DNA of 63,762 bases, from positions 23,260,413 through 23,324,174 of the forward strand of contig CM119266.1 in NCBI GenBank assembly GCA_051294375.1. The letters are read 5' to 3'. A program made the translations under genes and the position numbers. Shown in pieces: positions 2,911 to 39,975 of this stretch (its first letter is position 1; each line of letters starts with the position of its first letter). A model generated the notes under the pieces. The model was not told the origin of the DNA and did not search any database. It saw nothing but the letters and a program-made list of their open reading frames with translations. The DNA comes from Paraspadella gotoi (taxonomy: Eukaryota > Animalia > Chaetognatha).

Positions 2911-5048
2911 TAAAAATATTTCTCGTAATAGCCCATTGGAAAGGGTTCATTGACTGACTTAATGATCGAATTTTTTAGATTTCTTTACTGCCCTCATTTT
3001 ATAAGATATAAAAGGTCATGGTTATCATGTAAGTAAGTCCAGATTATCTGTACCCTTTCTGCAACCTGCATTCCAAATTTTCTTTTTTTCTCTTTTAAAT
3101 GTATTAAATAAAAAAAATTATTTGAAAGAATAATCGGCGTGGAGGATGCCATTAGTAAGCCTTAGTTACCCCACTTCCCGATTGAATTTTTAAATGAGGT
3201 TTTTTTTTCATTTATTTGAGACATAATACTAACTATTGGTACTATTAATTTTTTCTATTTTTTCTATTACAATTCTATGAATAAATATGAATAAGTAACT
3301 TTTTTAAAAAAATTATCATCTTTCACCCTATATTCAGTCATATCTAAAAAACAAAAAAAGATTTTGCATTGATATTTTGTATATCAACATATAAAACTAG
3401 GAGTCTACGTCGTTCTTAGAAATCGAGGAAGACTTTTTCAATGGAGATTTTCGTTAAAATCTGACTACCAAATAATGTCAATGCCCCTGGGAAAAATTCA
3501 GGTAAAAAATAGATGTAAAAACACTCGATTCCGATTCTGTTGCATCTGAAGGGCGTGCACTTTTTTTTCTCTTGACAAATAACCATCATTTTGACATCAA
3601 ACCATCAGATTCAAATGGACTGGTCTGCTTGGGAAAATATTTTTAACGCAATTTTTATATATAAAATAAAGGGATTTCTCAACTTCAATACAATGTCAAT
3701 GCATTTAACATATGTTGTGATTTTACAATAAACTTCAAATTCAGGAATCCGATAGCCATATGTCTGAAGGGCTCTCAAAATTTTTCTTTACATTTTATTT
3801 GGTTATTTTGATATGATACGATCATGGGAAAGTGAATTAGTCCATTTTGGTGAAATTTTTATTTAAAGTAAAAGTAAAAGAGGAGCTCACGATCGGAATT
3901 CTAAGAGTTTTCAATCAGGAGTCAGATTCGGGAAAAATCTTTTATGGCGAAAATCTTCCAAAGAAGGGGTTGATTTTCCGAAGATTTTGGTTAATATTTT
4001 CTATATTTATGGTAGGAATTTTTTGAAACTTAATATTAACAATATTGCCATCATTCTACCTTGGCCGGTATAAGAATATATTAAAAAAAACCTCTGGCTC
4101 TGTTCGTCAGAGCTTAATCCTGTGGGATTTGATCCCGGTTTCTTCGCTTTTGAAGCTGGTGGAGTTGGGCAAATCGCCAAATAATATTATGAACAAACTT
4201 ATCCTTAAACTAATATACAATTTAACAATAAACAATTTATTGAATCAAAATAAAAGAGTCATCTCCCGGATTCGATCCCGGGAAAGATCATCCACAAACA
4301 GCGAATTAAATATAAATATAAATATAAATATTCTCTTTGCATTAATTATTATTGCATGTCATATTGATTATGTTGAACAAGAGAACATTATAACCTTATA
4401 TTTTACTAGGGTACACTAGTAGTATTTTAATAGTTCTCATTTCTGTTATATCATTTAGTTCTTAGTTCTTCTGGTAAAGGATTTGTTATCAACATTTACT
4501 GTCCATCACTACAGTTTGAATACTTTATTCGTAATTGTTAAGCTTCATTGATTTTATGTATTCCTTATTGATTGTTAGTATTATTTCCTTTTGCTTGTTT
4601 GTGCATATAGATACTCTATGGATTTCTATGGAATATCTATATGCTTTGATTATTTTATTAAGGTCGATTTTATAAATGAACAAATAAATATTTTGTTCTT
4701 GGAAAACATTTTTATCTTTTGAACGAACTAGTAAGGCGCAGACGCACGTGGTGGTCGTTCACCACAGTCCTAATAAAACTATAACGTTTCAAAAAATAAA
4801 AAGAAATATAATAATATTGAACAGTGATTTTTTTTATGCTCGGAACAGTAACGTTACGCCATTTTTCATTGTGTCGTAAGGTATTGTGGAAGACGATACC
4901 GGAAGCAGTTCATCGTCTGTCCAATATAATATGTAATATCATAACAGTATGAACTAGTTAATGCAGCCCGCTCAATCAGGGAACTGTCTGTCAAGGCTTA
5001 GACACAATTCCGCCTTCGTATACTATGCATTAGCATTTTGACTTTAGA

Positions 5049-8000
5049 TTCCAACGATTCATTTTACAGTGAAACTCCAATCAACATTTGCCTCCTCTTA
5101 CCTGTTCTGGTGAAGGCCATCGTATATCCGTTTTACATAAACGAAATCTTGCTCTGGTTCTCCAAGGACGAGAGGGCTGTTAAGACTATTCTCATCATTT
5201 TTCTGATTGTTTGCAACACTATGACCATTTTGGAGATTTGGATCAGGAGCCGCTTGGCCTATTATGACAAGGCAGAAAAACGACTCATCTCTGACATGCA
5301 GAAGATTCACATTCACTACATTCGCAAGAGGTAGACATTAGATATTGGAAAACCCCCTCCACTGTCACTCCATAATATTATATTCTTTTTCTTTACTTAG
5401 CTCAATGCGACTCTGGTTTGAGAGTATATCAATAAATAACTCTTTGATCAGTCTGTCTCAGGGATGCCGGAGGCGTTGAATTTCGCTCCGCCCGTCCGTC
5501 TGTTTGTCCGTCCGTCCCCCCTGAACAAAAAACTCCTATTACTCGTGATTGGATGGTTGGATTGGAATGAAATTTTGTGTGTATGATTGAGCTGGATATA
5601 AAGTTTCGATGGAATCGTGCGAGTTGAAATGAATTAGAATGGAAAAAAAAGTCACATTTACTAAGCTTTTTACTAATTCTAACCCATAAATTACTCGAAT
5701 TATTCACAAAGGAATGGATAAAATGAGATGAAATTTTGTGTGGGTAGGGAAGTGTGTTATTGGGCAGAATATAAAGTTTCGATGGAATCGAGGAGTGGAA
5801 ATGAGTTACTTGCGAGTTTTTCTTTTAGATTCTTTTATCCCCGGGGCCATGTTTTAACTAACTGTACTGATAGTTTTCCTAAGGCCATATTTTGCTTTCT
5901 CAAAGATTTGAAGATACCCAAATTAGGAAATGTTTAGCTCTAACTTAAGCTAGATTTTTTTTTGCTTTCCCAAAAGCTAATTTTACTTTCCCAAAAGTTA
6001 CTCTTGTTTTGAAAATTTCTTAATAAGGTCAATTTTGGATTTTTTAAAAGCTAATATACGCATTAAGGCGTAGTGAAAGTTACATACGAAAATTCTAAAA
6101 GTCAATTATTAATAACATACCATCAGTGAACATTAATTTATTTATTTATTTATTATGAAATTGGTACAACTAATATAAAAATTATCCATTCATTTAATAA
6201 ATAAGCTATCTTGCCCCTGACTTTGGACAGGCTTTGGTGGTTTAAGGCATCCATCACTCATAGCAGGTCCCTGCAAACTTTCAATCAAGACTCTCTCTCT
6301 TATATTATTTTAATATATAAAAAATTAATTTTCAGCTTAAAATATAGCTTTTTCTAATTTTTGACCCACTTAATAAAGGAATTTTTCAAAAAGAGTTATA
6401 TTTCTTTTTATCAACTTTTTATGAGGAATCCAAATTTACAAAAAAATCTTAGAAAAAACTGTTTTGAAATTTGAACATTTATTGGTTTAGTACTAGTATA
6501 AATAAAACTATAAATATGGCCTACTGCGTAAATTGTAAAATTTATTAAAAATTTTTTTTTATTATATAAATGTTCATTAGTATAATGTTGTTCGTTCCTC
6601 ACTTTTAGAATTTTAATTAAAGTTAAATTTAGAAATTTTACTCCGCCTTATTACGCATTTAAAATGCCCAAATAAGGCAATCGTTTGCTTTTGTAAAAGC
6701 TATTGGTTTGTAATCATAACCAAATTAGGAAGTTTTTAGCTTTTCTAAAAGCAACCAAATAATTGTTAGTGTTTTATAAATAGCAAGAAACTTAATACTT
6801 AATGTAAATATTTTAACGTATTATATATTTTAATCTTTTTTACGCAAATAATTGATTTATTTAACATAAAGAAGTCGTCCACAACTTTTTTATCACATTA
6901 AAAAAAAGATTTCTGTTGAAAAAATGATGCCAGTATGGTAGACTAAAATCCACCAAACGTTCATCAGCGGCCATTGGTGCCGAATGACTTGCCTCCGGCA
7001 CCAATGGCCGCTGATGAACGTTTGGTGGATTTTAGTCTACCATACTGGCATTATTTTTTTAACAGAAATCTTTTTTTTAATGTGATAAAAAAGTTGGGGA
7101 CGACTTCTTTATGTGAAATAAATCAATTATTAGCGTAAAAAAGATTAAAATATATAATACGGGGTTCTAGTTCGGTGGTCGCCTAGCAGTTAAGAGGGAC
7201 GGGGCTCTTAATAGAAATCTACTATGAAATTAAATTCAATAGGAGCGGGGATTCAAAACTTTAGTCTTGAAGTCTACTTTTAGGTAAAAAAAGAATTTTT
7301 AACAAAAGTTTGATTTTAATGCTTTTATTGTTGCTATTAAAATTACAATATTACTATATAATGATTAAGGAGTGTAACGAAAATTCGTTTATGAACAACA
7401 ATTTATTTAACAGTTTCTAAGGACATATTTCGACTCTATGTTTCGAGTCTTCATCAGCAAGTGAAAATATTAGAGCCAATTATCTCAAACATCAGTTTTG
7501 GAGAGAGAGAGAGAGTGAGAGAGAGAGAAAAAGAGAGAGAGTTTCCAACAAAGAATTGAGTGAGGGATAGTGGCCAGATGTGAGGACAGGTGATAGGCCT
7601 ACCGAGGGCCCTCCTCTCACCTGACGGTGAGGCGGGCGGTTGCCTGTTCTGGCCTGTTTCGGGACAGGTGATACAGACTCCTCTTCCTCCTCCGGCACCC
7701 ATCGCTTTGGGCGGCGCTCGGTGTGAGAAGAGTCACACTCAAGTTGCTGCAGGTTCGGTTGAGGCATCGGATGTCCATTAAGGCGTAGTAAAATTTCTAA
7801 ATTTAACTTTAATTAAAATTCTAAAAGTGAGGAACGAACAACATTATATTAATGAACATTTATGTAATAAAAAATTTATATTAAATTTTACAATTTACGC
7901 AGTAGGCCATATTTATACTAGTTCTAAATCAATAAATGTTAAAATTTCAAAACAGTTTTTTCTAAGATTTTTTTGCAGATTTGGATTCGTCATAAAAAGT

Positions 8001-11000
8001 TGATATAAAGAAATATAACTCTTTTTGAAAAATTCCTTCATTAAGTGGGTCAAAAATTAAAAAAAGCTATATTTTAAGCTGAAAATTAACTTTTTATACA
8101 TTAAATATAGTTTTTTTTAATTTTTAACCCATTTAATGAAAGAATTTTTAAAAATGATTTATATTTTCTTTTATCAACTTTTGACGAGGAATTCAAATCT
8201 GCAATCAAAATTAAAGAAAAGCTTATTTTAAAATTTTTCGATTTTATAAGGATAGTACTATATATAAATATAGCCTACTGCGAAAATTAAAAAACATAAA
8301 ATTAATTTTTTTTACAAATTAATGTTTACTGATGGTATGTTGTTCATAATTGACTTTAAATTTTTGTATGTAACTTTCACTACGCCTTAATGTCCATTGC
8401 CTGCTGAGAGGCTTCCGCCTGATCCGTCGAGTAGTAACAGGGGAATCACCGTGCGGTTGAGGTGGCGTTGGGTGCTCCACCACAGTTTTGATAAGCGAAT
8501 CATAGCTTGGAGGGAGTTCGAATCGTCCTCCATCACGGTTCAAAGAGGGCTCGAGGGCCTTGATAAAAATGGCCTCTCTAATACCTCTTGAGAACCAGTT
8601 CTGGTCATGGGACAGCACGAGACAGTCTTCCTCTCTGAACAGATGGCCCATGTTCGTTGCATGCTCTGCAATTGCCGACAGGAAGTGCCCTCTCGCGTCG
8701 CGGTAGGGTTTAACGTGCTGCTGGAACCGATCTGAAAGAGATTTGCCTGTCTCGCCCACGTATGCTGCTGTACAGGCTTGGTTGCCCGCCCCTGCACAGG
8801 CCGCCCAGTAGACGGCTCCTGATGTTTTCGGTCTGGGGATTTTGTCTTTCGGTTTCACCAATTGCTCACATAAAGAGCCGCGGGTCGTCACTGAACTGGA
8901 GATCCCCTGCTTTGCTAGCACCCGCACCAATGATTCAGTGATCCCCTGGTGGTAGGGGAGGGACAAGTGACCCACGTTCTTGAGACGCTTCTGCTTATCT
9001 CCCAATTGCGCTGTGGTGGGCGCGGTAGGTCCTTCATGATAATAATAAAAAGTTTTTTTAATCAATCTTAACTTTTTTTAATGGATTCTGATAGAGCATA
9101 AAAAGTTAAATAAAAAATATAACTACAACTTTCAAAAATATTTATGTATTCTTGGTCAAAATTAAGAAAAAGTAATAAAATTATCAAAAAATGATGATGA
9201 TGATTATAAATAGTTTTTTATATTTTTCACACACTTATGATCAAAATATCGAAACAAGAATTATACTTTGTGATGACAACTTTTTGCAAGCTACCTGAAT
9301 CTGATCTTAAAAATAAAAAAATCCGAAAAAAATTTTTAGCCTTTCCTATTTATAAATAAATAATAAAAAATTAATATATGGAGTATGAAGTAATATTAAA
9401 AAAAATTGTCAATTCAAATTTGTTAAAAAATGTCTAAATTTTCGTTTGAGCAGGTGCTTAATTCAAATTTCTTAACCACCTTACTGAGTTAGTCTCCCCC
9501 TACTCTTAACCCGCCTGTAACACGGTGTTACAGCCTGATCCGAAGCTCAGGGACTGCTTATATTGAACGGTTCTGTCACTAGCACATAATAATAATTACT
9601 GTCTCTTCATTGGTGAGCCCGACTTCCGAACACAACAGCAACAACAACACTTTCAGGCGACATGCCTCAACCTGGCGATGCACTTTCCGCCAACAACACA
9701 TCAGGCAACATGCCTCAATTTTGTGACGAACCTTTCACCAACAACAACAATTGACTGAAGAGACGCAACAGACTTCTCCCTACGAGAGGGGGGGATGCAT
9801 GGTGGACTAAAATCCACCAACCGTTCATCAGCGGCCATTGGTGCCGGAAGCAAGTCATTCGCCTCCCAACCCAAAGGTCCGGAGTTCTAGCCCGGTGGCC
9901 GCCTAGCAGTTAAGAGGGCCGGGGCGCTTAACCCGCCTGTAACACGGTGTTACAGCCTGATACGAAGCTCAGGGACTGCTTATATTGAACGGTTCTATCA
10001 CTAACACGTAAAAATAATTACGGTCTCTTCAAGATATACTAAAGCTTTTAGTCTGAGCATGTATAAACTAAAAGTATTGTATTATCGTCAGGTTTCCTTG
10101 GGACTTTATCGCCCTCCTGCCAACGTGGGTCATCCATTTCACTTTGATGAGCAAAGACGAGGTCTTCGGGTCCATCTTCATTCGCATCTCTCTCGAACTG
10201 TTCGTTTTCTCTATCCCGATTTGGATCGACCTGTTTCAGATGCGTTACTATCTGAACAATGCTCGACAGGAGCAGCCGGCTTCCCCGGTTCTTAAGCATT
10301 CAAAGAAAATAGTTCGCTTCATAGTATTTTACGCCTGCATGGTGTCGATCTTGGCCGCCGCTTGGGTCTCGATCGGATGCATCGACAAAGAATTCGACAT
10401 ACTTCGTTGCCGAAAGAATTCCTGGACTTACTTTATCAACGTCAGCGCCGGCATCAAATCGAAATTCGGGATATTTTTGTCGGCGTTTTACTTTATCGTC
10501 AATCTTGGAGGCAATGGAAGAGGCGACATTCTCCCTCATAACACTTTCGGTAAATTTTTTTGGGAAAAATCTTTTTAACGAGGTTGTGGAAGACGATGCC
10601 GCGAGCAGTTCACCGTCAGTTGCACACAAGTTCCCGAACTTCGGATCGGGCTGTAGTCCGTCACTATAGCTGGGTTAGACGCCTCGTCGGGCTTCCTTGG
10701 GTGAATCAGCGGGGCGCGAACCCGAGTCCTTTGTTGGGAGGAGCTCGTGCTACCTCCGGCGCCATAGGTGCTGCTGATTCAAGTGAGGTACATAGCTATT
10801 TTAGTGTAATGTAGTCTGTAGAATTCGATGGTGATGACCATTTTTTGGTATAATTTTATCTTTCTTGTCGGAAATGACGGTTTTTAATGTATATAAAATT
10901 GTTATAAAATAGCAAAACCATTAAAAATTATGATAAATCAAATAATTAAAATTATATAAAATTTATATGAGCTTTTGAAATCTAAAAATAAAGACTTTTA

Positions 11001-14000
11001 AAAATATTTTGGTAAGTTTATTTCTAAATTTTATGTTTTATAAAATGTTAGTTAACTATATTTATTAATAATTATGAGTAAAAATTAGGCTAATATTAAA
11101 AAATAATAATTTCAAAATTTTTTTCATGGATTTGCATTCTTTGCAAAAAGTTGATATAAGAAAATATAATTTTTATATCAAAATTATGTCATTAAGAAGG
11201 TCAAAATTCAGAAAAACTATAATTTTAAGCAAAATTGAAAAATTAAACAAAAATAAGTTTTTAATATTTTTAACCTACTTAATGAAAGAATTTTTTAAAA
11301 TGGATTATACTTTCTTATATCAACTTTTTGTAAGGAATTCAAATCCGGTTTTAAAATTTTAAAATTTTTATTTTTTTACTTTAGCTTATTTTTTATTATT
11401 ATTTTTTAATAAATATAGCTAACAAACTATTAATAAAATATAAAATTTGTAAATAAACTTACCAAAATATTTATATGGGTCTTTATTTTCATATAATGTA
11501 AGTTAAATATAGCTTTTATAAAATCTTAAGAATTTGAGTTTCTTATACTCTACGATGTTTTCTCCATTTTAATAGCACCTTATATGCTGCAAAAATCGCC
11601 ATTTCCGACAAAGAAGATGAGACTATACAAAAAAATGGTTATCATCATCGAATTCTACAGACTTTATTACACTAAAATATCTATGTACCTCACTTAATTT
11701 GTTATATTTTGTTATTTTTCAACGTCCTACCGCGCAAGTGTGATGGCTATGATGCACGCGTTGTGCCCGAGCACTCTAGGAGGGGCTGCTTATTCCTGCT
11801 CTCGTCTTCACACATGATGTTCGAGGGCAGAGGTGTGTTAACATGCCCGGGAAGAGGTGTATTAACGTGCCAGCGTTTTCGTGTGGGCTCACCAATGTGG
11901 AAGATGACGACGCGAGCAGTTCGCCGTCCGTTGCACACAAGTTCCCGAACTTCGGATCGGACTGTTGTCCGTCCTTTGGGTTGGGAGGAGCTCGTGCTAC
12001 CTCGGGCGGCATAGGTGCTGCTGATTCTCGGACGAGTAACGGGGTATTAAATACTACAGTGGAGATCCTGAGTATAATTATATAAGAAAGAAAATAAAAT
12101 CGCCAGACGAATTCTTTAGAAATTGTTTTGTTTACCAATGTAACCAAAGTTTCTCTCTCTATAAAAATGAATTCCACTTTGTACAATTAGCCCATTCGAT
12201 TCCATTCGCTTTTCTGATTTCAATAAATCGATTCATCTCATTTTGTTCGCTTTTTCTTCTCGACGACCTCCACTCGACCGCTACAAGGTGCAGATTTCAG
12301 AATCCACAACTGTGAGTCGAACGTTTAAAATGTTTTTCTTCAAGTAATTAAAATTATTTCAAAATGATTTACAGAAAGGTATTTTAAACTCTGAAAAGAA
12401 AGTTCAGAGCAAAGTCCCTGCAAAAAAAGAGTTTCTTAAATCAATCAAATCAATTCGAACCTACTGCGGAGTCTCATGTTTTAAACATTTTACAAGTTTT
12501 TTACACAATTTAAAGATGTATTTTTCCATCATATTTTTGTAAATTAGCTTGTTAATCCAGCATTTCTTTATCTATTCTTTTGATTTAGAGATGGTATTCG
12601 TTGCATTGGCAATCTTTCTCATCAATTTTTTGCTTGTTTATAATCAAGCGCATGTTGGAGCTATGGTGTACATATTTACGATGAGAAGCCGAATATACCA
12701 AATGAATAAAGCAGAAAACCAAGCCATCTTAAAAATGTAATGAACTCCATCAGTCTGCCTTTGAAAAAAAATTATATTTCAGTTACTATTACATCTCTAT
12801 TAAATGAATACTTTTTTTAAAATTTTTTGTACCAATTCCATAACATAATGTAGAACAAATGAACAATTTTCTCTTTCCTTTCTCTCTCAACATAGAGTTG
12901 AGAGTTGAGAGTTGCTAAGTATTTTATGATAATAAACCTCTCCTAATCTCGGTCACGCTGGTTAAGTGTGATGTTACATACCCTCATATAACTTAAGATT
13001 CTTGCTAACTCTTAGGTATGACGCCGAACCCAACATCCACGATCGGGTGCAACGATATTTAAAAATGTCCGTCAACTACTATGAGCACCACCGTTTGCAC
13101 ACTCTTTTCAACAATCTTAATCTAACTCTAAAAAAGGACGTTGTCTATCCTTTATGCGAAAAATTTTTTGATCAGCTCCCTATGCTTGATTCCTTGTCAT
13201 CAGGTTTTTAAAAAAAATGCTTGATATTTTTTCACTGATGAACATTTGTCTTTTGTATTTTGGTTGCTCACCAACGCTATTATCGAAATAATACAAGACC
13301 AAGAGTCACCTCGGGGTAATTATTCTTATATTCAGGAATATTGCGTCAATTATCTCTTTGTGTTCGCGAGCAATTATTTCTTCCTGGAGACACTGTTATC
13401 GATATCGGCGAGACAAATTCCAGAGCGTTTTATATTGCCAAAGTATGCAGATTGCAGATTGTACAGACCTGTGCAAAAAAAACGCGCCACTTTATTTCAG
13501 ACTTTAAAAATCACTCTATAAACTAGAATTTAAAAAAAAAAATTAAAGTTGATTAAAGTTTATTGAAAGATGCTAAGTTTAGCATAAATTTTATTAAAAT
13601 CGGGCCATCCATTTAAGAGCAGTGATTTTTTAAAATGAAGTACTCTATCGCAAAGCTGAACAAAAAAAAATCTGATACATTTAAGACTAATCTTTTTCCT
13701 TCTCATATTTTACAATACTTGAAATAGATTAAAAATAAAAAAAATTACACTGGACATCCGGAGGGATAGCTGGATAACTGAATTGCCCCAGATCCCTAAA
13801 TAATAATCTTAAGGTTATTAAAACATATGATGAAAGATAGGTCCACGTCCATGATTCTGAAGCTTTTACACGGATTTCAAATGGGAGTTAAATGAAATGA
13901 TCAAATACTGTTAGGGGTGAGTCAAAAATTTAGAGTGAGTACAAGCTCAAACGAAAATTTATACATTTTTAAGTATACTTTAAAATTTCAATGGACAAAA

Positions 14001-16756
14001 TTTTTTTTATATGGCTCTATACCCTAGTAATTATTTTTTTAATATTTATTTATAGATAGGAAAGGCCAAATATTTTTTTGACAAATTTTAAATTTTAAGA
14101 CCAGATTCAGATAGCTTATAAAAAGTTGTCTACACAAAGTATAATTTTTTTAAAAATATTTTTATGATAAGGTCAAAAATAAGAAAAATCGTAAAAAATT
14201 GTCATCATCATCATCTTTTAATGATTTTATCGGTTTTTTAAGATATTAACAGAGAAAATGTGAGAATTTTCAAAAACTGTAATTATGTTTCTCGTTTAAC
14301 TTTTTATGCTCTTTCAGAATCCATCAAAAATTTTCTTTATATGGTAATATAATAATTTTAATTAGGCTAAAACCCTCAGAAAAAAGAATTTTTGACAAAA
14401 AATATTTTAATACTATAATCTATGCTCATGATAAATTATTTTAACGCTGTATACATTAGCATTTAAATTTCATCGGCTATGGCTAATACTGTGGCTAAAT
14501 TTTCTGATAGAACGACTTCAGATTTGTTACCCTGGTACAAAAATAGCTGACGGTTTAATATTTTAACTCCCAATAGTCAAGACTGCTTATTTTCTTAGTT
14601 ATGTGATCAATGGAATGATCGAATTTTTAAAAAACAAATTTTTATACATTTTAGTAGGACTTTCTTGTTATAAGATATAATTTTTATGAAAAATATGTTT
14701 TAAATTGTTGGTTCATATTACCTATATAGACATTGGAGAATGTGTCTGAGCAATCTGAATATCAAAAGCTTTTTCACAACCACAATGACAGCCTTTTTCA
14801 TTTTATAGTTTTTCCAGTTAAAAAAAATCCGTGTAGATAAAAGTCGATTATATCTCCTAAACCACTTGACTGATTGTAATAAAATTTAGTTACATTGATT
14901 CCTTTTTTAACAAATTTTATTTTTTTTATATAATTTTTAAAAATGTATTTATAGAGTGTCTGGAATTTAAAGTTATAAAGTGGCGCGTTTTTCTTCCACC
15001 GGTAACCGATAGTACTTATAATTCATAAAACAGAATCATTTATTAGGGACGTCTGGCGTTAAGCGTCCGAGATAAAAATTAGCGAATAAAAAAGTTGTTA
15101 TTTTACTCACTGAATAAAAATACTTAAAATACTTACAAAATACGTAAAATTGATAAAATTATTATTGCAAAAACAATGTTTAATCACATGCACTACATCT
15201 AGTGCCTTTTTTTCATTGAAATCGATAGATATTAACTAAATATATTAGAATTAATTTTTACTTTTGATATAATAAGAGAACCATACTTCCGTCACTTGAT
15301 GTCGTCAGGTTAATAATATATATGCGTTGGAGGATTCCAAATCTGTTTTTAAAATTGACCTATGTAGACGCGCATAGACGCGATATGCCTTGAAAGCAAG
15401 TTGTTTGGTTTGGTTCCACCTAAATTTTTAGCTTCGGCCGAGTCAATTGGTAATAAAAAAATTGATTTTCTTTGATATCTTTTGAACCAAAAATGATAGA
15501 ACGATGAGACTGGTATCGTATTAAAGCCATAATTATGGAGCATCTTTTCCATATAATTTTTTTAAAATGTTTCAAGGGATTTTTTAAAAATCTTGATCGG
15601 AATCTTAGTCAAAAGTATAACAACTTTTGAAATTAAATTAAACACACTTGGCCACATTTAAAAAAATAAATAAATATAGATTCTGAAAGAGAAAAGATTA
15701 AATTAAAAGATTAAATTATGTTTATGATATAAACAAAAATTTTCTATACCTCAAATGTTTATATAATTACTAAAGATAATGATTATCATTTTGTTGAAAA
15801 CAAAAAAGTTTAAAAAATTCATGTAGGAACCTTAAAAAACATATTATTTAAATATGATAATTTAAGAGTTTAAACTTTGTTCCCCTGATTTAAAAACTAC
15901 TGACATAGGGCTAAAAGACTGTATTATCAGATTTTAAATTTTTAAGATTTAGCTGTGTCTACGAGGCCTGGGAGAAAAAATTTATCACAATTTTTTTTTA
16001 TTTTATGTCATAATGCTATCATAAAATAATTTTAATGCATCACGTTAGGTATCATACGAAAGCTAACGATGTCTGCTACATGACAGCACGTGAAAAAAAA
16101 AATTTCTTAATAAAAATAAAAAAATCACCAGACTACCCTACATTTATATTGTTTCAAAAATAAAAAATAAAAATTAAGAAAGACGAAGGCGATTTTAACA
16201 GGTAACTTCAACACGTGCGTTAACAAATTCCGTTTTGATTATTAGGGAGAAGGTTATTTGATCGATAAAAAGAAAAAGGTTAAAATCGTGCACACCGAAG
16301 AAGTCGTGGCTAAAGACGCGTTGCTCATGGCTCAAGAGTCAGTCGTAAAGTTCAAGGCGAAAACATTTTTAGCTCTTTATTCTTTAAGTCAGGTTAAAAG
16401 CGTCGAAATCGCTTCGCTTTTAAAAGAAGACATTTCATGCGTTTCTTCTTTTTCTCCAGGACGACTTTATGCGGTGGCTCATGGCACTGGCCGACGCGGG
16501 TCTCCTTCAAGACGATAAAAGGTCCGCCTTTGTCACGCTTTTCGAAACGGCGGACAAGCAGAGCGTCTCCGAAGTGATCGATTTGTCCACGACGACCGCG
16601 ACCTACGAGGAAGAGCAGAGGATCGAGGCATGGGTCAACTCATACTGGCTCAAGACGCAAATGGACATGGCGCGTTCCAGAAGGGAGAGGAACGGTAAAG
16701 ACTGTGAAGAAGATTCCTTGGGGGGTTTCTCAGTTTCAGATGAGAACATTGTTTGA
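5049..16756 (+). CDS. Spliced CNBD-family (CNG/HCN/KCNH-like) 6-TM ion-channel-like gene; 5' exon(s) not identified
   Basis: Phase-consistent GT-AG exons at 5049-5330, 10092-10549, 12589-12736, 13016-13203, 13336-13442, 16246-16392 and 16460-16756. Motifs in order: S2-S3 (IRSRLAYYD...KIHIHYIRKRFPWDFIALLP), pore (FYFIVNLGGNGRGDILPHNT), S6 (EMVFVALAIF), C-linker (HDRVQRYL...LNLTLKKDV), CNBD (LRQLSLCVREQLFLPGDTVIDIGE..FYIAKG...ALL...KAKTFLALYSL). Confidence 0.85.
6064..6650. mobile_element. MITE with TAAGGCG-type TIRs and an 8-bp TSD (hAT-like), copy 1; contains a SINE-like insertion
   Basis: Ends taaggcgtagtgaaa ... ttttactccgcctta. Flanks atacgcat / ttacgcat match at 7 of 8 bases. It is an inverted homolog of 7779-8389. 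Confidence 0.75.
6153..6300 (-). mobile_element. SINE-like retroposon 3' fragment
   Basis: Same sequence (aaagcctgtccaaagtcaggggcaagatagcttattta...gtaccaatttcata) as 20099-20179 and 39700-39975; here followed by a (TAAA)n-type tail. Confidence 0.6.
6817..7161. repeat. Long inverted duplication: arms 6817-6982 and 6996-7161 with a 13-nt spacer
   Basis: The arms are near-perfect reverse complements and include the 5' part of a family-B LTR. Confidence 0.9.
7422..7457 (-). ncRNA. Minimal type-I hammerhead ribozyme core at the 3' end of the Penelope element
   Basis: The minus strand reads CUGAUGA-A-GACUC-gaaacaua-GAGUC-GAAA-UAU-GUC. The 3' strand of stem I is absent. Confidence 0.7.
7779..8389. 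mobile_element. MITE with TAAGGCGTAGT TIRs and a perfect 8-bp TSD ATGTCCAT (hAT-like), copy 2
   Basis: TSD at 7771-7778 and 8390-8397; inserted in the PLE ORF. Confidence 0.88.
9905..9980 (+). ncRNA. Twister ribozyme (P5-type permutation), family B 3' LTR, with point mutations
   Basis: agcagt-taa-gagg-gc-cggg-gcgct-U|AA-ccc-gcc-[tgtaacac/gtgttaca]-g-cctga-tacgaagc-tcagg-g-actgct. The split 5' LTR copy retains the canonical GA and the loop tccgaagc. Confidence 0.72.
10623..10703 (-). ncRNA. Twister ribozyme (P5-type), family D, decayed
   Basis: cacccaag...ga-cgag-gcgtc-U|AA-ccc-agc-[tatagt/actaca]-g-cccga-tccgaagt-tcggg-aa-cttgtgtg, preceded by a tRNA-like segment with B-box gggttcgcgccc. 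Confidence 0.62.
10781..11695. mobile_element. Foldback/MITE with long imperfect TIRs (aagtgaggtacatag...ctatgtacctcactt)
   Basis: More than 100 bp of terminal inverted similarity. The centre shares sequence with the TAAGGCG MITEs. Confidence 0.75.
13468..15004. mobile_element. Degenerate TIR element (aaaaacgcgccacttt TIR core) containing a dispersed repeat (13913-14480) also found at 22028-23325
   Basis: Inverted match between ~13468-13522 and ~14948-15002. The internal repeat provides the empty site (aagttgtctacacaaag) for the family-A TRIM. Confidence 0.5.
15044..16140. mobile_element. MITE with TAGGG..GTCTGG TIRs and 7-bp TSD CATTTAT, copy 1
   Basis: tagggacgtctgg ... ccagactacccta; catttat at 15037-15043 and 16141-16147. 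Confidence 0.85.
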
Positions 16757-19616: not shown

Positions 19617-21187
19617 TAGGGAAGTCTGGCGTTAAGCGTCCGAGATAAAAATTAGCGAATAAAAAAGTTGTTATTTTAGTGACTGTCTGGTGGTCCTATC
19701 ACCACAGATGGATTAAAGCTGTTTTTTTTCGCAGCGCCTCAGTGGCTCAGTGGACTAATGAACCATCCTAATGTGCGTCGCTGGTTCGAGCGCTGAGGTT
19801 GTCATGTAGAAAGTGGGATGGACCGGGAAACCCGCCTGTTGGCAAGGGCCTGCTGCCAGATCCAAAGCTCTGGACTACATGAACGTGCTGTCTCGCTGTC
19901 GCCACGAGGTGACACCGCTGCTGGTGTGGCGCCCTGTAAAACCAGCCTCTTCAAATGAATAAAAATACTTAAAATACTTACAAAATACATAAAATTGATA
20001 AAATTTTTATTGCAAAAACATTGGTCAATCACATGCAATATATCTAGTGCCTTTTTTTTCATTGAAATCAATAGATATTAACTAAAAATAAAAATAAAAA
20101 GCCTGTCCAAAGTCAGGGGCAAGATAGCTTATTTATGAAATGAATGGATAATTTTTATATTGGTTGTACCAATTTCATAGAACTAATTTTTCTTTTTGAT
20201 ATAATAAGAGAACCGAACTTCCGTCACTTGATGTCGTCAGGTTACTAGCAAATATGCGTTTGAGAATTTGAAAATAATGTTAAAAATTCTCTAAAATAAG
20301 CTTAATTTAAAGCTTATACAATGTAATTGTTATGCACTTAAAACAATAAAAAAATGCTTACCTAGTAAGGAGAAATTTGGTAAGGTAGAAAATATCAAAA
20401 TATGCAAATGAGATTATGCTTATTTTAATTTAAATTTTTGAGACCACCAACAGATAAAGTATGCTTTGGCTATTTTATGGTTAAAAAATCAATCCAATTC
20501 TTTTCATATTTTAGGTATAAATGACAATTAAATTTTGTTATAAAAATTTTGACCTGTAACAATTTTTTTTTTTAAACGATCGAAACTCATATATGTTGTA
20601 GAGCTACAGAAGACCCATCTATAACTGTAATTTAAAAGTATAATATTCACTACTATAATAGTTGTGACTGATTAAAAAAGTAATAAAACAAAACTTTCCC
20701 TCAAAACTGGGATACTTTTCGGAAGGGGGTAATCAAATTCCTCTACCCGATATGTTGCTCAAATTAAAACGAATTATCAACCTTCCTTAATTATATTTTC
20801 CACATTCTTTTCCTGGGTGCTCAAGTCAATTAATGAAAAAAATCAATTCTGACAAAAAATTGAATAAAAATTTTAAAATAAATGAATTTAAAAAAATTAT
20901 TTTCGTCAATATTTATGATACTGAAGATCAACATTGAGGAGTTATAGACAGAATATATCAAAATTTATTAGTCCCAATTATTACAAATGTAAAAGTAAGA
21001 TTTAGCTGTGTCTACGAGGCCTGGCAGAAAAAAAATTATCACAATTTTTTTTATGTCATAATGCTATCATAAAATAATTTTAATGCATCATGTGAGGTAT
21101 CATATGAAAGCTAACGATGTCTGCTTCATGACAGCACGTGAAAAAAACATTTTCTTAATAAAAATAAAAAATCTCCAGACTACCCTA
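19617..21187. mobile_element. MITE with TAGGG..GTCTGG TIRs and 7-bp TSD CAGATGG, copy 2; hosts a family-A solo LTR and a SINE fragment
   Basis: tagggaagtctgg ... ccagactacccta; cagatgg at 19610-19616 and 21188-21194; termini homologous to 15044-16140. Confidence 0.85.
19684..19953 (+). mobile_element. Solo LTR of twister/tRNA-like TRIM family A (twister at 19802-19882, slightly mutated)
   Basis: TG...CA ends; closely similar to LTRs 22238-22509 and 22695-22963; absent from the homologous site near 15110. Confidence 0.88.
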
Positions 21188-22357
21188 CAGATGGTAAATG
21201 AGTTACTCTCATAGTAAACCGCAAAAATCTGTATTTTTTACGTTTAAATAGAATGGAAATAATCGAGCGTCCTCTCTTATTGTGTAAATGAATATATCAA
21301 ATGAAAATTTAAAAATGGTGTGGCGGTTGTATATATTGTAAGAATCAGATTAAATTAAGTGAACAACCAAGGAGGCGATAACAGGTAAAGCATGATTATA
21401 AAAATGCACCAGAACTAGATTACAAGATTGATAAAACCTCAGGCTGTTTAAAAAATATGGTAGGACAAATAAAAACTGCTTGGCGCTTATCTCTTCACAC
21501 CTGTCTAATTCTGATTCTATCTGTTCTTTGGACGACTTTGACACTGGCTATTTTTTTTTCAGTGTCGATTAAAGTTTTTTGAGGGCAACCAGAAATGATA
21601 CGACGTAATAAACAATTTTTTATCATTGAAGAGGTTCAAATCGAAACTGACTAGTCGATATTTCTCAGAAATTGTTAATCTTTCACCTTTGATCGATAAT
21701 CAACGTATCTTTTGAGCTAAGGACCCAGCACCTAGAAGATTCGCAAGTGCCTGCTAATTGGTTCAACTTAAAAATTGTATTATTATTGACATCCGCGGTT
21801 TTTCATGATGGATATGAGACTCTTCGTTTGGGCTTCCATTTGTTGCCTTACTTGCTTCGCCCTCGTTTCTTATCAAGGTTTCGTTCTCAACAGTCTCTAC
21901 AATAGTTTGACCTCGAACAGGTACTAGAGAATGTTGTTTCTCCAATGAAACAATTTTTCGATTCCGTTCTCCAGCCTCTTTATTTGTTGTAAATTTGTGC
22001 CTGTTCGCTAGAGGTAGCCGCACTCAATGGGGTGAGTCAAAAATTTTGAGTGAGTACAAGCTCAAACGAAAATTTATACATTTTTAAGTATACTTTCAAT
22101 GGACAACAAATTTCTTATATTCTTATACCTTTGTAATTAATTTTTTAAATATTTATTTATAGATAGGAATGGCCAAAATTTTTTTTATAAATTTTTATTT
22201 TAAAGACCAGATTCAAATAGCTTATAAAAAGTTGTCTTCTGGTGGTCCTATCACCACAGATGGATTAAAGCTGTATACTTTACAGCGCTCCCTCAGGTGG
22301 CCTCAGTGGACTAATGCACCATCCCAATGTGCGTCCCTGGTTCGAGCCCTGAGGTTG

Positions 22358-22438
22358 TCATGTAGAAAGTGGGATGGACCGGGTAACCCGCCTGTAGGCA
22401 TGGGCCTACTGCCAGATCCAAAGCTCTGGACTACATGA
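22358..22438 (+). ncRNA. Twister ribozyme (P5-type permutation), family A 5' LTR; predicted cleavage 22384|22385
   Basis: P5 tcatgtag/ctacatga; gtgg-GA-TGGA; U|AA-ccc-GC-c; P3 gtaggc/gcctac; P4 ccaga/tctgg with loop TCCAAAGC; pseudoknots T1 UCCA:UGGA and T2 GC:GC. Matches the twister consensus order UAA..GCC..(P4)UCCYAAGC..GA-T1. Confidence 0.85.
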
Positions 22439-22746
22439 ACATGCTGTCTCGCTGTCGCCACGAGGTGACACCGCTGCGGGTGTGGCGCCCTGTAAAACCA
22501 GCCTCTACAATGGTGAGCCCGACGTGATCCCGAACACGCAACCCGGCATGATAATATCCTCTGCCCTTGATGTGGTTTGAGCTACACAGCTGCCACTCAA
22601 AGCAAGGCCACCAGAATGAAGAGAGGTTCAGCGGAGGAGCATGCGCTTCATCCCCCTGCTTCGTACTCTCATATGCGAGAGTCCTGGGGGCGGCTGTCTG
22701 GTGGTCCTATCACCACAGATGGATTAAAGCTGTTACTTTCACAGCG

Positions 22747-22808
22747 CCTCAGTGGCTCAGTGGACTAATGCACCATCCCAATGTGCGTCCCTGGTTCGAG
22801 CCCTGAGG
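22747..22808 (+). promoter_or_regulatory. tRNA-like internal Pol III promoter in the LTR (A box TGGCTCAGTGG 22753-22763, B box GGTTCGAGCCC 22793-22803)
   Basis: Consensus A and B boxes, closing stem cctcag/ctgagg, and a middle stem gcac/gtgc around catcccaat. It is not a complete canonical tRNA. Confidence 0.8.
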
Positions 22809-22811
22809 TTG

Positions 22812-22891
22812 TCATGTAGAAAGTGGGATGGACCGGGTAACCCGCCTGTAGGCATGGGCCTACTGCCAGATCCAAAGCTCTGACTACATGA
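22812..22891 (+). ncRNA. Twister ribozyme, family A 3' LTR; predicted cleavage 22838|22839
   Basis: Same as the 5' LTR copy except for one missing G at the base of P4. Confidence 0.8.
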
Positions 22892-23459
22892 ACATGCTGT
22901 CTCGCTGTCGCCACGAGGTGACACCTTCTGCGGGTGTGGCGCCCTGTAAAACCAGCCTCTTCAGTCTACAGAAAGTATAATTCTTTTTTAAATATTTTTA
23001 TGATAAGTAGGTCAAAAATAAGAAAAACCGTAAAAAATTGACATCATCATCATCTTTTGCTGATTTTGTTAAATTTTTACTAAGAAAACGTAAGAATTTT
23101 TAAAAGCTGCAATTATATTTCATGTTTAACTTTTTATACTCTATCTTTATATATTTATATAGTAATATGATAGTAATATAATATTATATAGTAATATAAT
23201 AATTAGGCGAGTACCCTCAGAAAAAATAACTTTTAACAAAAAATATTTTAATAGTATAATCTATGCTCATGATAGATGATTTTAACGTTGTATACATTAG
23301 CATTTAAATTTCATCGGCTATGGCTATCTTCGCAATAGATAGCGTTTTATATTAGCCGGATCTCCTTTTCGCAGATTCCTGGCCTATAGTACACTTTGTC
23401 GGTCCGTCGGTATCTTTTTGGTAAATCACTTATAATCTTTTAAACTCCAATTATCAAAC

Positions 23460-23650: not shown

Positions 23651-25465
23651 CCTCCAAGACTTTTGGACCTTCACTGCGGTCGACGTTGTGCTCGCCGTTT
23701 TCCTCTCCACTTTCCTCGGCATCTCTCTCTGGCGAAGCGTCAAGATTCGCGCCGCCGCGCAAGAGGCGGCCGAGGCGCTGACGGCGCCGATTACCGACTC
23801 AGCCTTGATTCTCGACGTGTTGGGACCCATCCTCGCCTGGCTTCTCTATCTCATTGCGCAAGGATTTAAAACTGTTATCATCTATAGCGGTTCGTTTTGA
23901 CCATACTTGTTATCATAGTTCTTTTCCACAAGGGCGATTCATATTTTATACTTATTTATGAATTACTTTTCGACCAGCGCTTTTTACGTAAAAATTATCC
24001 GTAACCTTCTTGTAATTTTCAAGGCTTCGCCAATGCAAGCAGCTCCATCGACTTTGACGCCGACGTCTTACCCTGGAATGCCACTGACGCGATAGAATTG
24101 ACTTACATCGCTGACGAATTTAAATGGGGAATCTTTTTGACAGCGACCATCTTTTTCGTCATCGCGCTCGCAAACCTGGGAGAAGGTTGTTTTTTGTTTT
24201 GTTTTTTTTTTTCGATCGTTTGTTTGTATTGTGAGTTATTTTCTGTTATATTGTGGCGAATCCCAAAATTTGCCTCCCGTATAGCTTGGTGAAACTCACC
24301 CCGTCCTATTGGCTTACACAGCTCAGTACTCGTTCCCCAACCCGTGAGTTTCGGGTTCAATCCATTCACGGTCACACTGGTTAAAGTGAGAGGGTGTCGG
24401 AATTAACACGCCAGTGACTTGGGTTGGGCACTGCAGGTCCAAAGCCCTGAACGCCAGCTGTCGGCAGATGCCTCACACCCCAGGCATCACACATGTCCCC
24501 CCCGTTGCCATAATATACTTAATATTATACTTATTCTTCTTTCAATTGAGTCGCTGTCTCCTAAAATAAATAAGTATGACTAATAATATTTTTTCTTCGT
24601 TATACTTACTTACTGTTCGTGTATGTTCATTTTTTATTTACTTTAAATTAAAGTAAATAAAAAATGAACATACGCGAACATTAATATTGAGGATATTACG
24701 CAGGTCAAAATAGACGAAACGCGTATTTGGTCGCTGGAACCATGTTAATATTTTTCGATTTCTTGGACACGACGACTTTCGTGGACATTTGTTTCGATCT
24801 TGGTTACCAAAAGGCAAGGTCTTAATTTAAACGGACGAAAGCAGCTTAAATTAACTTATGATGATACCATTTGTTCTCGTTTTCAGCTTCGCAATGTCTC
24901 CACCATTCGCGTAATGGCGCTAGTCATCTATTGCTTGAGCCTTTGTTTTCCACTGTACGCCGTTTCCGAAATGATGAGAACGAGATTCGGCGTTTGCGAG
25001 ATTTATAGAAATTTCGAGGCGAGTTAAAATTGACGAAAATAGCAATAAGAATTACAACAATAACAACAAAAAAACATAAATTTAAAAAAAAAAATTACTT
25101 TTCAAATTAATCGTTTAGCAGCGAGAAGTTTTTTTTTCTTTTTCAACATTTTTTTTTTATTTTATAAAAAAAATTGTTTGAGCAAATTAGAATTCGTCCG
25201 AATCTGGGGTGGGGTGAAAAAGTCCCAGACTTACCTGCCTTACCCATTCTTACAGGTGACTTACTTTGTATCCCGAATGATCCTCGTCGACATTCCCCTC
25301 GTCGTCCTTCGATCCATCGCCGCCCACTACCAACTCTTCGTCGTCGGTCAGATCCTCTTCGTCACGAGGGCGTTCCTCGTCAAGAATTGCGTCTCGATCC
25401 TCGCCAGCCTTTGGCTCTTGTGCCAGTTGAACCCGGGGCGTCGTTTAAATTATAGCGTCTTGTAA
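23651..25465 (+). CDS. TMEM121/CECR6/TMEM26-like multipass membrane protein, paralog 1; 5' exon uncertain
   Basis: Exons 23651-23889, 24024-24185, 24704-24813, 24887-25018 and 25256-25465. Motifs FDFLDTTTFVD, LSLCFPLYAV and VDIPLVVLR...AFLVKN; colinear with paralog 2. The family name was assigned from memory of motifs. Confidence 0.75.
24252..24512 (+). mobile_element. Solo LTR of twister/tRNA-like TRIM family C, TSD ATAT (intronic)
   Basis: Termini tgtggcga...ttgccata flanked by atat (24248-24251, 24513-24516); B-box ggttcaatcc; twister-like motif inside. Confidence 0.72.
24377..24457 (+). ncRNA. Twister ribozyme (P5-type), family C, partly decayed; predicted cleavage 24404|24405
   Basis: ctgg-ttaaa-gtga-ga-gggt...U|AA-cac-gcc-[agtg/cact]-g-cagg-tccaaagc-cctg-aacg-ccag. 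P2 cac/gtg; T1 imperfect. Confidence 0.65.
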
Positions 25466-39699: not shown

Positions 39700-39975
39700 A
39701 TATTTTCCACTTCATTGATAGGGAAGCCAGGTACTCTGGGAGTGAATAAACGAGACTGTGAGAGAGTCTTGATTGAAAGCTTGCAGGGACCTGCTATGTC
39801 ATTATCTTGTAAGAGTGATGGAGGCCTTAAAGTTTAAGTTTAAGTTAAACCACCAAAGCCTGTCCAAAGTCAGGGGCAAGATAGCTTATTTATTAAATGA
39901 ATGGATAATTTTTATATTGGTTGTACCAATTTCATAATATAATATAATATAATATAATATAATATAATATAATAA
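39700..39975 (+). mobile_element. SINE-like retroposon copy with a (TAATA)n tail
   Basis: Longest copy of the repeat seen at 6153-6300 and 20099-20179. The 5' boundary is uncertain. Confidence 0.6.

Follow-up and report, generated by a model that had tools for sequence, protein, structure and literature searches.

A window of 63,762 nucleotides from the chaetognath Paraspadella gotoi (NCBI GenBank assembly GCA_051294375.1, contig CM119266.1, positions 23,260,413 to 23,324,174 of the forward strand; coordinates below count from its first letter) holds a small non-coding retroelement with long terminal repeats (LTRs) at 22238-22963, here called family 1. By every testable feature it is a Helenus element, i.e., a terminal-repeat retrotransposon in miniature (TRIM) with tRNA-type promoter boxes in its LTRs. 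Behind these boxes, each LTR carries a segment whose sequence and pairing read as a permuted twister ribozyme, and related repeats elsewhere in the window carry the same unusual version of it. The element probably represents a new animal lineage of LTR retrozymes of the RNA polymerase III (Pol III) type; that all its parts work together as such, by the cycle proposed below, we regard as an evenly balanced proposition. Its architecture had been noticed before in a reading of the letters alone (the original prediction), which the present analysis has followed up.

Structure of the element and its insertion sites

The two LTRs of family 1 are 96.0% identical (22238-22509 and 22697-22963; 274 columns, with 263 of 265 aligned bases identical and 9 gap positions), and the GC content of the element is 56%, compared with 22% in the flanks. 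Its longest stop-free frame spans 92 codons. The primer-binding site (PBS) at 22511-22528 fits the tRNA-Trp line of Kojima Fig. S2 (PMC10886601) at 17 of 18 bases, and a purine-rich tract precedes the 3' LTR. GTCT stands at both ends of the element and once only, at 14128-14131, in the empty paralogous site; the host site is an AT-rich repeat, whose paralog (13914-14485) shows one GTCT vs two at the filled site. Joins that span the site have also been seen in contigs of three public sequencing runs, and contigs from such runs show family 1 to be multi-copy in one organism. The target-site duplication (TSD) measures 4 bp in both of the two family-1 insertions, one of them with a mismatch. At both insertions the LTR starts with TC (22238, 19686) and ends with CA; a canonical TG start has been ruled out in each case by the empty site. 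The TC start lies 2 bases inside a TG (22695-22696) that follows the purine tract, and either a non-canonical end or a 2-nt over-trimming at integration is possible. A further public-run contig of 1,442 nt, which aligns gap-free to the ribozyme region (22354-22498) and differs there at 31 positions, represents a divergent subfamily.

Each LTR contains a tRNA-like unit, in which A and B boxes are combined with an acceptor-like stem of 7 bp; the B boxes start at 22339 and 22793. The A box of the 3' LTR (22753) matches the consensus, and that of the 5' LTR has one extra base; ARAGORN has called no tRNA. Box consensus and the T4 rule of Pol III termination are taken in their textbook form. No T4 run occurs inside the family-1 element, the first being found at 22984, 21 bases into the flank. 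Use of the promoter by Pol III is highly probable; for Helenus itself, too, Pol III transcription has been deduced (PMC10886601). These results bear out the original prediction in its description of a non-coding element ordered LTR, PBS, polypurine tract (PPT), LTR, in the GTCT duplication with its empty-site paralog, and in the A and B boxes directly before the fold of each LTR, apart from the extra base in the 5' A box; its distance of 454 nt between the two predicted cuts likewise agrees with the coordinates (22385-22838).

The twister-like fold and its relatives in the window

The segment behind the B box contains all twister blocks in the type-P5 order, namely P5, AAA, P2', GA, T1', a linker, UAA (with the predicted cut after the U), P2, GC, P3, P4 with the loop UCCAAAGC, and P5', as read against the twisters of Schistosoma mansoni (Table 1 of PMC8501958) and the Rfam twister-P1 consensus. 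In family 1 both pseudoknots, T1 (CCA:UGG, 3 bp) and T2 (2 bp), are wholly Watson-Crick, the catalytic A+1 and A+2, the general-base G and the A-A pair are present, and most pairs of P5, P3 and P4 reach a folding probability of at least 0.9. A loop U is known to pair inside L4 of the twister (PMC5408937). According to McKinley 2024, natural imperfections of P1 and P2 are tolerated and changes of pseudoknots or catalytic residues are not; family 1 has retained every element of the intolerant class, with A+1, A+2, the general-base G, T1 and T2 unaltered. No hammerhead core, in its generally known pattern, has been found in the window by a simple pattern scan.

Covariation among related repeats of the window has made the case for a twister stronger than it was from the first reading. 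Sister families 2 and 3 have been found by searching the window for the PBS (Table 1), and both have kept the permuted fold amid otherwise divergent sequence; the fold is present in families 4 and 5 as well. An LTR alignment between families 1 and 2 counts 145 identities, 83 mismatches and 48 gaps. The 3' LTR of family 2 combines a tRNA-like stem with the same permuted twister, including compensatory changes, and differs from its 5' LTR, which is rearranged and divided by a 2.3-kb block (7212-9504), at two core positions. When 7 copies, which represent 5 repeat groups and include two poor ones, are aligned, 80.8% of the cells show pairing and double-sided changes occur in 12 of 27 pairs; they concern T1 (U-A vs C-G), T2 (G-C vs A-U), P2, the ends of the linker, three pairs of P4 and five of P5. 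This count has been reached in 2 of 500 shuffles, and slid structures gave 0-4 pairs. As caveats, relatedness of the copies may inflate such counts, alignment in the P5 columns is loose, and the same sequences had served for drawing the structure. A+1, A+2 and the G are invariant in the 6 rows that align in register. Moreover, the 3-base P2 with its bulge is shared by families 1, 2 and 4 with differing bases, and the linker length of 6 nt by families 1-4.

Descriptor searches and a reverse test with a covariance model point in the same direction. A descriptor of the crystal-structure pairings, written after the copies had been seen, passes all three family-1 LTRs, one of two known twisters, none of 49 look-alikes and 1 of 200,000 shuffles; it replaced an earlier version that had passed neither control (N bases and a P2 deletion in the controls). 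The strict descriptor finds 4 sites in the window vs 1 in 300 block-shuffled windows; little weight is given to the loose one, with 5 sites vs 62 in 300 shuffled windows. Pattern scans beyond this organism, which returned 0 and then 30 loci in metagenomes, 1 and 0 in viral sequences and 20 in prokaryote genomes, have revealed no relatives. By eye, 49 of the 51 loci are chance matches, and the other two are P1-type twisters on short contigs, which have been used as controls. A covariance model of the 7 copies retrieves three further copies with E<0.01, and a model built from the window only ranks the two Rfam-confirmed twisters 1 and 2 (E 0.0003 and 0.014) among 26 primary-motif loci taken from the 51. 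In the two genomes that carry the control twisters the window-built model finds nothing. The controls (L034:50-116 and L051:57-126) are type-P1 twisters resembling those of Schistosoma; they lie on contigs of 660 bases in two bacterial assemblies and are probably contamination.

On the grounds of covariation, recurrent P2 and linker features, descriptor counts and the model test, we conclude that the window copies form a conserved twister subtype, and that the segment behind the B box is a type-P5 permuted twister variant. Self-cleavage of the family-1 fold we consider likely.

A palindromic linker and the proposed cycle

The P1 hairpin is absent, and its place between T1' and the predicted cut is taken by a self-complementary linker of six bases. 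Among 8 copies drawn from families 1-4, 6 have a linker that self-pairs at -6 kcal/mol or below (family 5 has been excluded from the count for its longer linker), vs 11/267, 19/229, 11/191 and 3/176 in the hexamer background (2-8%). In the unconstrained minimum-energy fold of a two-LTR transcript, LTR1 pairs with LTR2 across the linker region, but in an inactive P2 register. Pairing between the two linkers would bring the 3' half of the first LTR motif together with the 5' half of the second as a nested P1-type twister, in which the monomer forms an insert, and the remaining halves would yield a second twister. P1 might thus be formed between LTR copies, which would favour cutting in transcripts with two LTRs alone and spare a circle with one copy, an idea to which we give somewhat less than even credence. 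A related behaviour has been described for an amphibian hammerhead with one pair and a palindromic tetraloop, which is cut efficiently only as a dimer (PMC7229834).

In the proposed cycle, transcription by Pol III would begin at the tRNA-like unit in the 5' LTR and continue through the 3' LTR, whereupon the twisters would cut at 22384/22385 and 22838/22839 and release a 454-nt monomer without terminal redundancy. The monomer would be closed to a circle by the host tRNA ligase; RtcB circularises animal retrozyme RNA in vitro (PMC7229834). A Gypsy-type reverse transcriptase, supplied in trans, would then prime from tRNA-Trp at the PBS, and copying of more than one round of the circle would rebuild two LTRs, as in the model for plant retrozymes (PMC4918200). 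The Gypsy-type partner is highly probable because of the 4-bp TSD and the Trp PBS, as argued in Kojima 2024 (PMC10886601); for the circle as template, the chances appear about equal on either side.

Evidence that weighs against this reading

Several observations speak against the scheme, and most of them concern the fold. P2 has three bases opposite four (3 bp and a bulge), and P4 has five pairs closed by A-U instead of the near-invariant G-C, so that the canonical set of a 4-bp P2, a P1 stem and a G-C-closed P4 is not found in family 1; in the review PMC5408937, a changed P2 length has been suggested to disrupt the active site, and the G-C pair closing P4 is described as essentially invariant. 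These features are not errors of this copy, since one public-run contig is identical to the window over 22340-22438. Rfam reports no twister match in the window at gathering thresholds, nor at E<=10 in segments of 1,001 and 106 nt, and it recognises both control twisters (56-71 bits). Local alignment to the control twisters is weak, its scores being reached by 133 and 775 of 5,000 and by 39 and 1,491 of 10,000 shuffles. In secondary-structure folding, which represents neither pseudoknots nor Mg2+, the twister-compatible fold (-23.2 kcal/mol) lies 8 kcal/mol above the minimum (-31.2), P2 has a probability of 0.00, compared with 0.63 for a competing 5-bp helix in which the catalytic G is buried. 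In family 3, P2 cannot form, and the linker of family 5 is unlike the others. The descriptor, too, has to be counted here for its late origin.

The transcript raises further objections. A T-rich tract, with 8 T in the solo LTR, lies upstream of the A box (most contigs have T at 22735), and family 2 has a T4 within its internal region; either could stop Pol III ahead of the second ribozyme. As to the coupling of the LTRs, 2 of the 8 linkers lack a palindrome. For the two-LTR RNA, the energy of the swapped twister (-245.2) is lower than that of the local one (-242.0), yet an inactive fold is lower still (-255.8); the ensemble probability amounts to only 0.17 for the cross-LTR P5 and to 0.02 for its local counterpart. 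Relative to shuffled sequences, the circle has no more than a modest folding advantage (z -1.76).

With regard to the fold, the original prediction has stood in part. Its twister motifs are at the places that it gave, but T1 comprises 3 bp and not UCCA:UGGA, and it had missed the bulged P2, the A-U closure of P4 and the linker in place of P1. The covariance-model search it had proposed is negative with the Rfam twister models, and the window-built model ranks true twisters at the top in the reverse test. Taken as a whole, its TRIM, its tRNA-type promoter and the homology to twisters are supported; the P2 and P1 deviations, the inactive helix, the palindromic linker and the sister families had escaped it.

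Alternative explanations

Much of this evidence would also suit a fold that is a non-catalytic relic, or a packaging or recognition structure, derived from a twister-bearing repeat, in an element that moves as an ordinary Helenus. The missing Rfam match, the short P2, the absent P1 hairpin, the A-U closing pair, the inactive helix dominating secondary-structure folding and the loss of P2 in family 3 all lend themselves to it. Nevertheless, both pseudoknots change double-sided while A+1, A+2 and the G stay constant in the six in-register rows, and the same deviations return in the unrelated flanking sequence of family 4, which fits a working subtype rather than decay; we hold the relic, the chief rival without catalysis, to be unlikely. 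A mere chance resemblance to twisters, suggested by the weak local alignment to known ones and by descriptors made post hoc, has been largely refuted by the single passing shuffle in 200,000, the covariation and the reciprocal model test, and is scarcely credible.

Other alternatives accept the ribozyme but change its role or its carrier. In the chief rival with an active ribozyme, the twister acts solely as an end-former, in which case singly cut, redundant linear RNAs would enter ordinary LTR strand transfer and no circle would be needed. From the coordinates, a transcript cut at one LTR retains a terminal redundancy of ~100 or 125 nt; the element lacks a T4 terminator, and the competing helix would leave cutting incomplete. 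The linker palindromes, however, suggest coupled cutting at both LTRs, and circles accumulate in plant LTR and animal non-LTR retrozymes of the same two-ribozyme layout (PMC4918200, PMC7229834), which makes the end-former appear improbable to us. Finally, the repeats could be pseudo-LTRs of a non-autonomous Penelope-like or other non-LTR unit that is moved by target-primed reverse transcription, given that family 4 has the same twister variant ahead of a simple-repeat tail. This is very hard to reconcile with a tRNA-Trp PBS right after the 5' repeat in three families, and with purine tracts, CA ends, 4-bp TSDs and a solo LTR with its own TSD; we regard it as most improbable.

Comparison with known systems

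Among known elements, Helenus (TRIMp3, PMC10886601) resembles family 1 most directly in being a non-coding TRIM of <1.3 kb with tRNA-like A and B boxes in the LTRs, a PBS and a PPT, a 4-bp TSD as in its animal families, and a Trp PBS as in Helenus-2_SyJa; in the comparison with Helenus that had been called for, family 1 thus fits the published description. In the available text of that paper, ribozymes are mentioned in one reference title only. In most of the Helenus LTRs examined by eye, a T-rich run closely follows the B box and the LTR ends shortly afterwards, whereas here ~160 nt with the twister fold follow, and the family-1 LTR differs in starting with TC. A motif search of the available Helenus Data S1 (PMC10886601) has given no sequence match to family 1; animal consensus sequences of this supplement were read by eye and fungal ones motif-searched. 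This reading has brought to light what looks like a complete type III hammerhead directly behind the B box in Helenus-2_SyJa-LTR and Helenus-2_SyUm-LTR of Synergus wasps, with the order stem III, GUC, 7-bp stem I, CUGAUGA, stem II and GAAAC and with complementary loops, which is unannotated in the available parts of PMC10886601. Helenus-2_SyJa is the sole Trp entry of Fig. S2 there, and Helenus-2_SyUm is Trp-primed as well. These Synergus elements resemble family 1 in the Trp PBS, the LTR length (277 bp there), the 4-bp TSD and the presence of a ribozyme-shaped segment next to the B box, where no T4 run occurs, but the segment is a hammerhead there (by eye) and a twister-like fold here.

Plant LTR retrozymes (PMC4918200) have in common with family 1 the order LTR-PBS-PPT-LTR, the 4-bp TSD, the lack of an open reading frame (ORF), one ribozyme per LTR (predicted here) and a predicted monomer without R region. 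They differ in their type III hammerheads, their tRNA-Met PBS and their occurrence mainly in plants, and circles have been experimentally shown for them. For their promoter, a 2020 review saw none and a 2022 abstract reports one in the LTR. A preprint of July 2026 describes LTR retrozymes as primarily of plants and with type III hammerheads (10.64898/2026.07.22.740005).

Compared with the twister itself (Rfam twister-P1 RF03160 and the S. mansoni T-variants, PMC8501958), family 1 has the same N-A-A, GC, P3 base CUGUAG...UACUG, L4 pattern, AAA, GA and both pseudoknots, and is distinguished by its P5 permutation, the 3-base P2 with bulge, the 5-bp A-U-closed P4 and a palindromic hexamer for P1; the S. 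mansoni twisters stand at the 5' end of RTE elements, that of family 1 inside the LTR. The dimer hammerheads of amphibian retrozymes and Penelope-like elements (PMC7229834, PMC6765202) likewise have a weak helix, of about one pair and a palindromic tetraloop, that is rescued by two-copy pairing, although they belong to another ribozyme class and to non-LTR elements, and dimer action is shown there and would only be expected here. Similarly, the SINE-like (short interspersed element) hammerhead repeats of Schistosoma (PMC6765202) join a Pol III promoter to a self-cleaving ribozyme, cleavage being predicted in our case; they are non-LTR tandem repeats with a hammerhead and without PBS, PPT or LTR.

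As the Rfam match, the canonical P1 and P2 and the retrozyme hammerhead all fail, the element has not been filed as a member of the twister or retrozyme families. A literature search, with Repbase, Dfam, subscription journals and the McKinley 2024 supplement outside its scope, has returned neither a twister-bearing LTR element nor a Helenus with a ribozyme; the original prediction, too, knew of no described LTR element that combines a tRNA promoter with a twister. Family 1 stands as a new Helenus-type TRIM lineage that has a conserved, non-standard twister in each LTR and probably works like an LTR retrozyme.

Coordinates and neighbouring features

Table 1. Positions of family 1, its parts and its sister families in the window.
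Feature	Position	Strand	Remarks
Left TSD GTCT	22234..22237	+	single copy in empty paralog 14128-14131
5' LTR, TC...CA	22238..22509	+	from LTR alignment
tRNA-like unit, 5' LTR	22290..22355	+	acceptor-like stem; A box 22298-22309 (one extra base); B box 22339-22349
Type-P5 twister-like fold, 5' LTR	22358..22438	+	predicted cut 22384/22385
Fold, 5' part	P5 22358-65/22431-38; AAA; P2' 22369-72; GA 22373-74; T1' 22375-77; linker 22378-83	+	palindromic linker
Fold, 3' part	P2 22387-89; T2 22390-91; P3 22392-22411; P4 22412-16/22425-29; L4 22417-24	+	
PBS for tRNA-Trp	22511..22528	+	17/18 bases
Internal non-coding region	22529..22675	+	
Purine-rich tract	22676..22694	+	imperfect PPT candidate
3' LTR	22697..22963	+	stem 22746-52/22803-09; A box 22753-63; B box 22793-803
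Twister-like fold, 3' LTR	22812-22891	+	predicted cut 22838/22839; P4 one base short
Right TSD GTCT	22964..22967	+	
Family-1 solo LTR	19686..19953	+	TSD ACTG/AATG, 4 bp; empty paralog near 15111
Family 2, sister element	6935..10031	+	Trp PBS 9611; PPT ~9780-9797; 3' LTR ~9798-10031
Family 3, decayed sister element	10585..12027	-	Trp-type PBS 11894; tRNA-like stem; P4/L4/P5 and palindromic linker retained
Family 4, non-LTR-looking repeat with (TAA)n tail	39760..39954	+	same twister variant without P3
Family 4, other copies	6139-6297 (-); 20098-20179		
Family 5, single tRNA-like unit, then P5-type twister-like fold	24298..24456	+	longer linker

Family 4, in which T2 reads AC/GU, may have supplied the LTR families with their ribozyme. 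Two motif copies are broken at TTAA near the predicted cut, one at 7207-7211/9505-9509 by the 2.3-kb block with duplicated CTTAA, and one at 39828-39850 by a short repeat expansion; these breaks probably reflect TTAA/TA targeting. The start of the family-2 repeat at 9505, 3 nt before the predicted cut, has been considered as a cleavage footprint and rejected, as the rest of the LTR is found at 6935-7211 and CTTAA is duplicated around the block. An inverted duplication of 345 bp (6817-7161) takes in the start of the family-2 5' LTR, and a 37-base remnant of a family-3 LTR end lies at 4884-4920. AT-rich palindromic repeats resembling miniature inverted-repeat transposable elements (7779-8345, 9075-9502, 10781-11695, 13914-14485, 22009-23326) are nested with all three LTR families. 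Pfam has given no matches for 5 ORFs of the window. Among the stop-free frames, one of 252 codons (8319-9077, minus strand), without Pfam match, presumably resembles the endonuclease end of Penelope-type elements, and one of 168 codons (10072-10578, plus strand), between families 2 and 3, resembles a segment of a eukaryotic ion channel (atlas score 0.95).

Implications

Up to now, LTR retrozymes have been known mainly from plants and with hammerheads, twisters of mobile DNA from non-LTR elements, and Helenus without ribozymes. If cleavage holds, family 1 would link the three, as an animal LTR retrozyme with a Pol III promoter of its own, and would assign to the twister a natural role in making unit-length or circular RNA. 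The fold would then also be a twister subtype missed by Rfam, and perhaps the first twister known to act in dimeric form. The hammerhead in the wasp Helenus consensus offers a second, named system. In a more general form, which we put forward as a rather unlikely extension, animal Pol III-driven LTR retrozymes would hold either a twister (at least two families in one genome here) or a hammerhead (Synergus) in the slot behind the B box, with the P1 of a new double-twister subtype formed between the LTRs, such that exact unit length would result only from complete two-LTR transcripts and a circle with one copy would be safe from renewed cutting.

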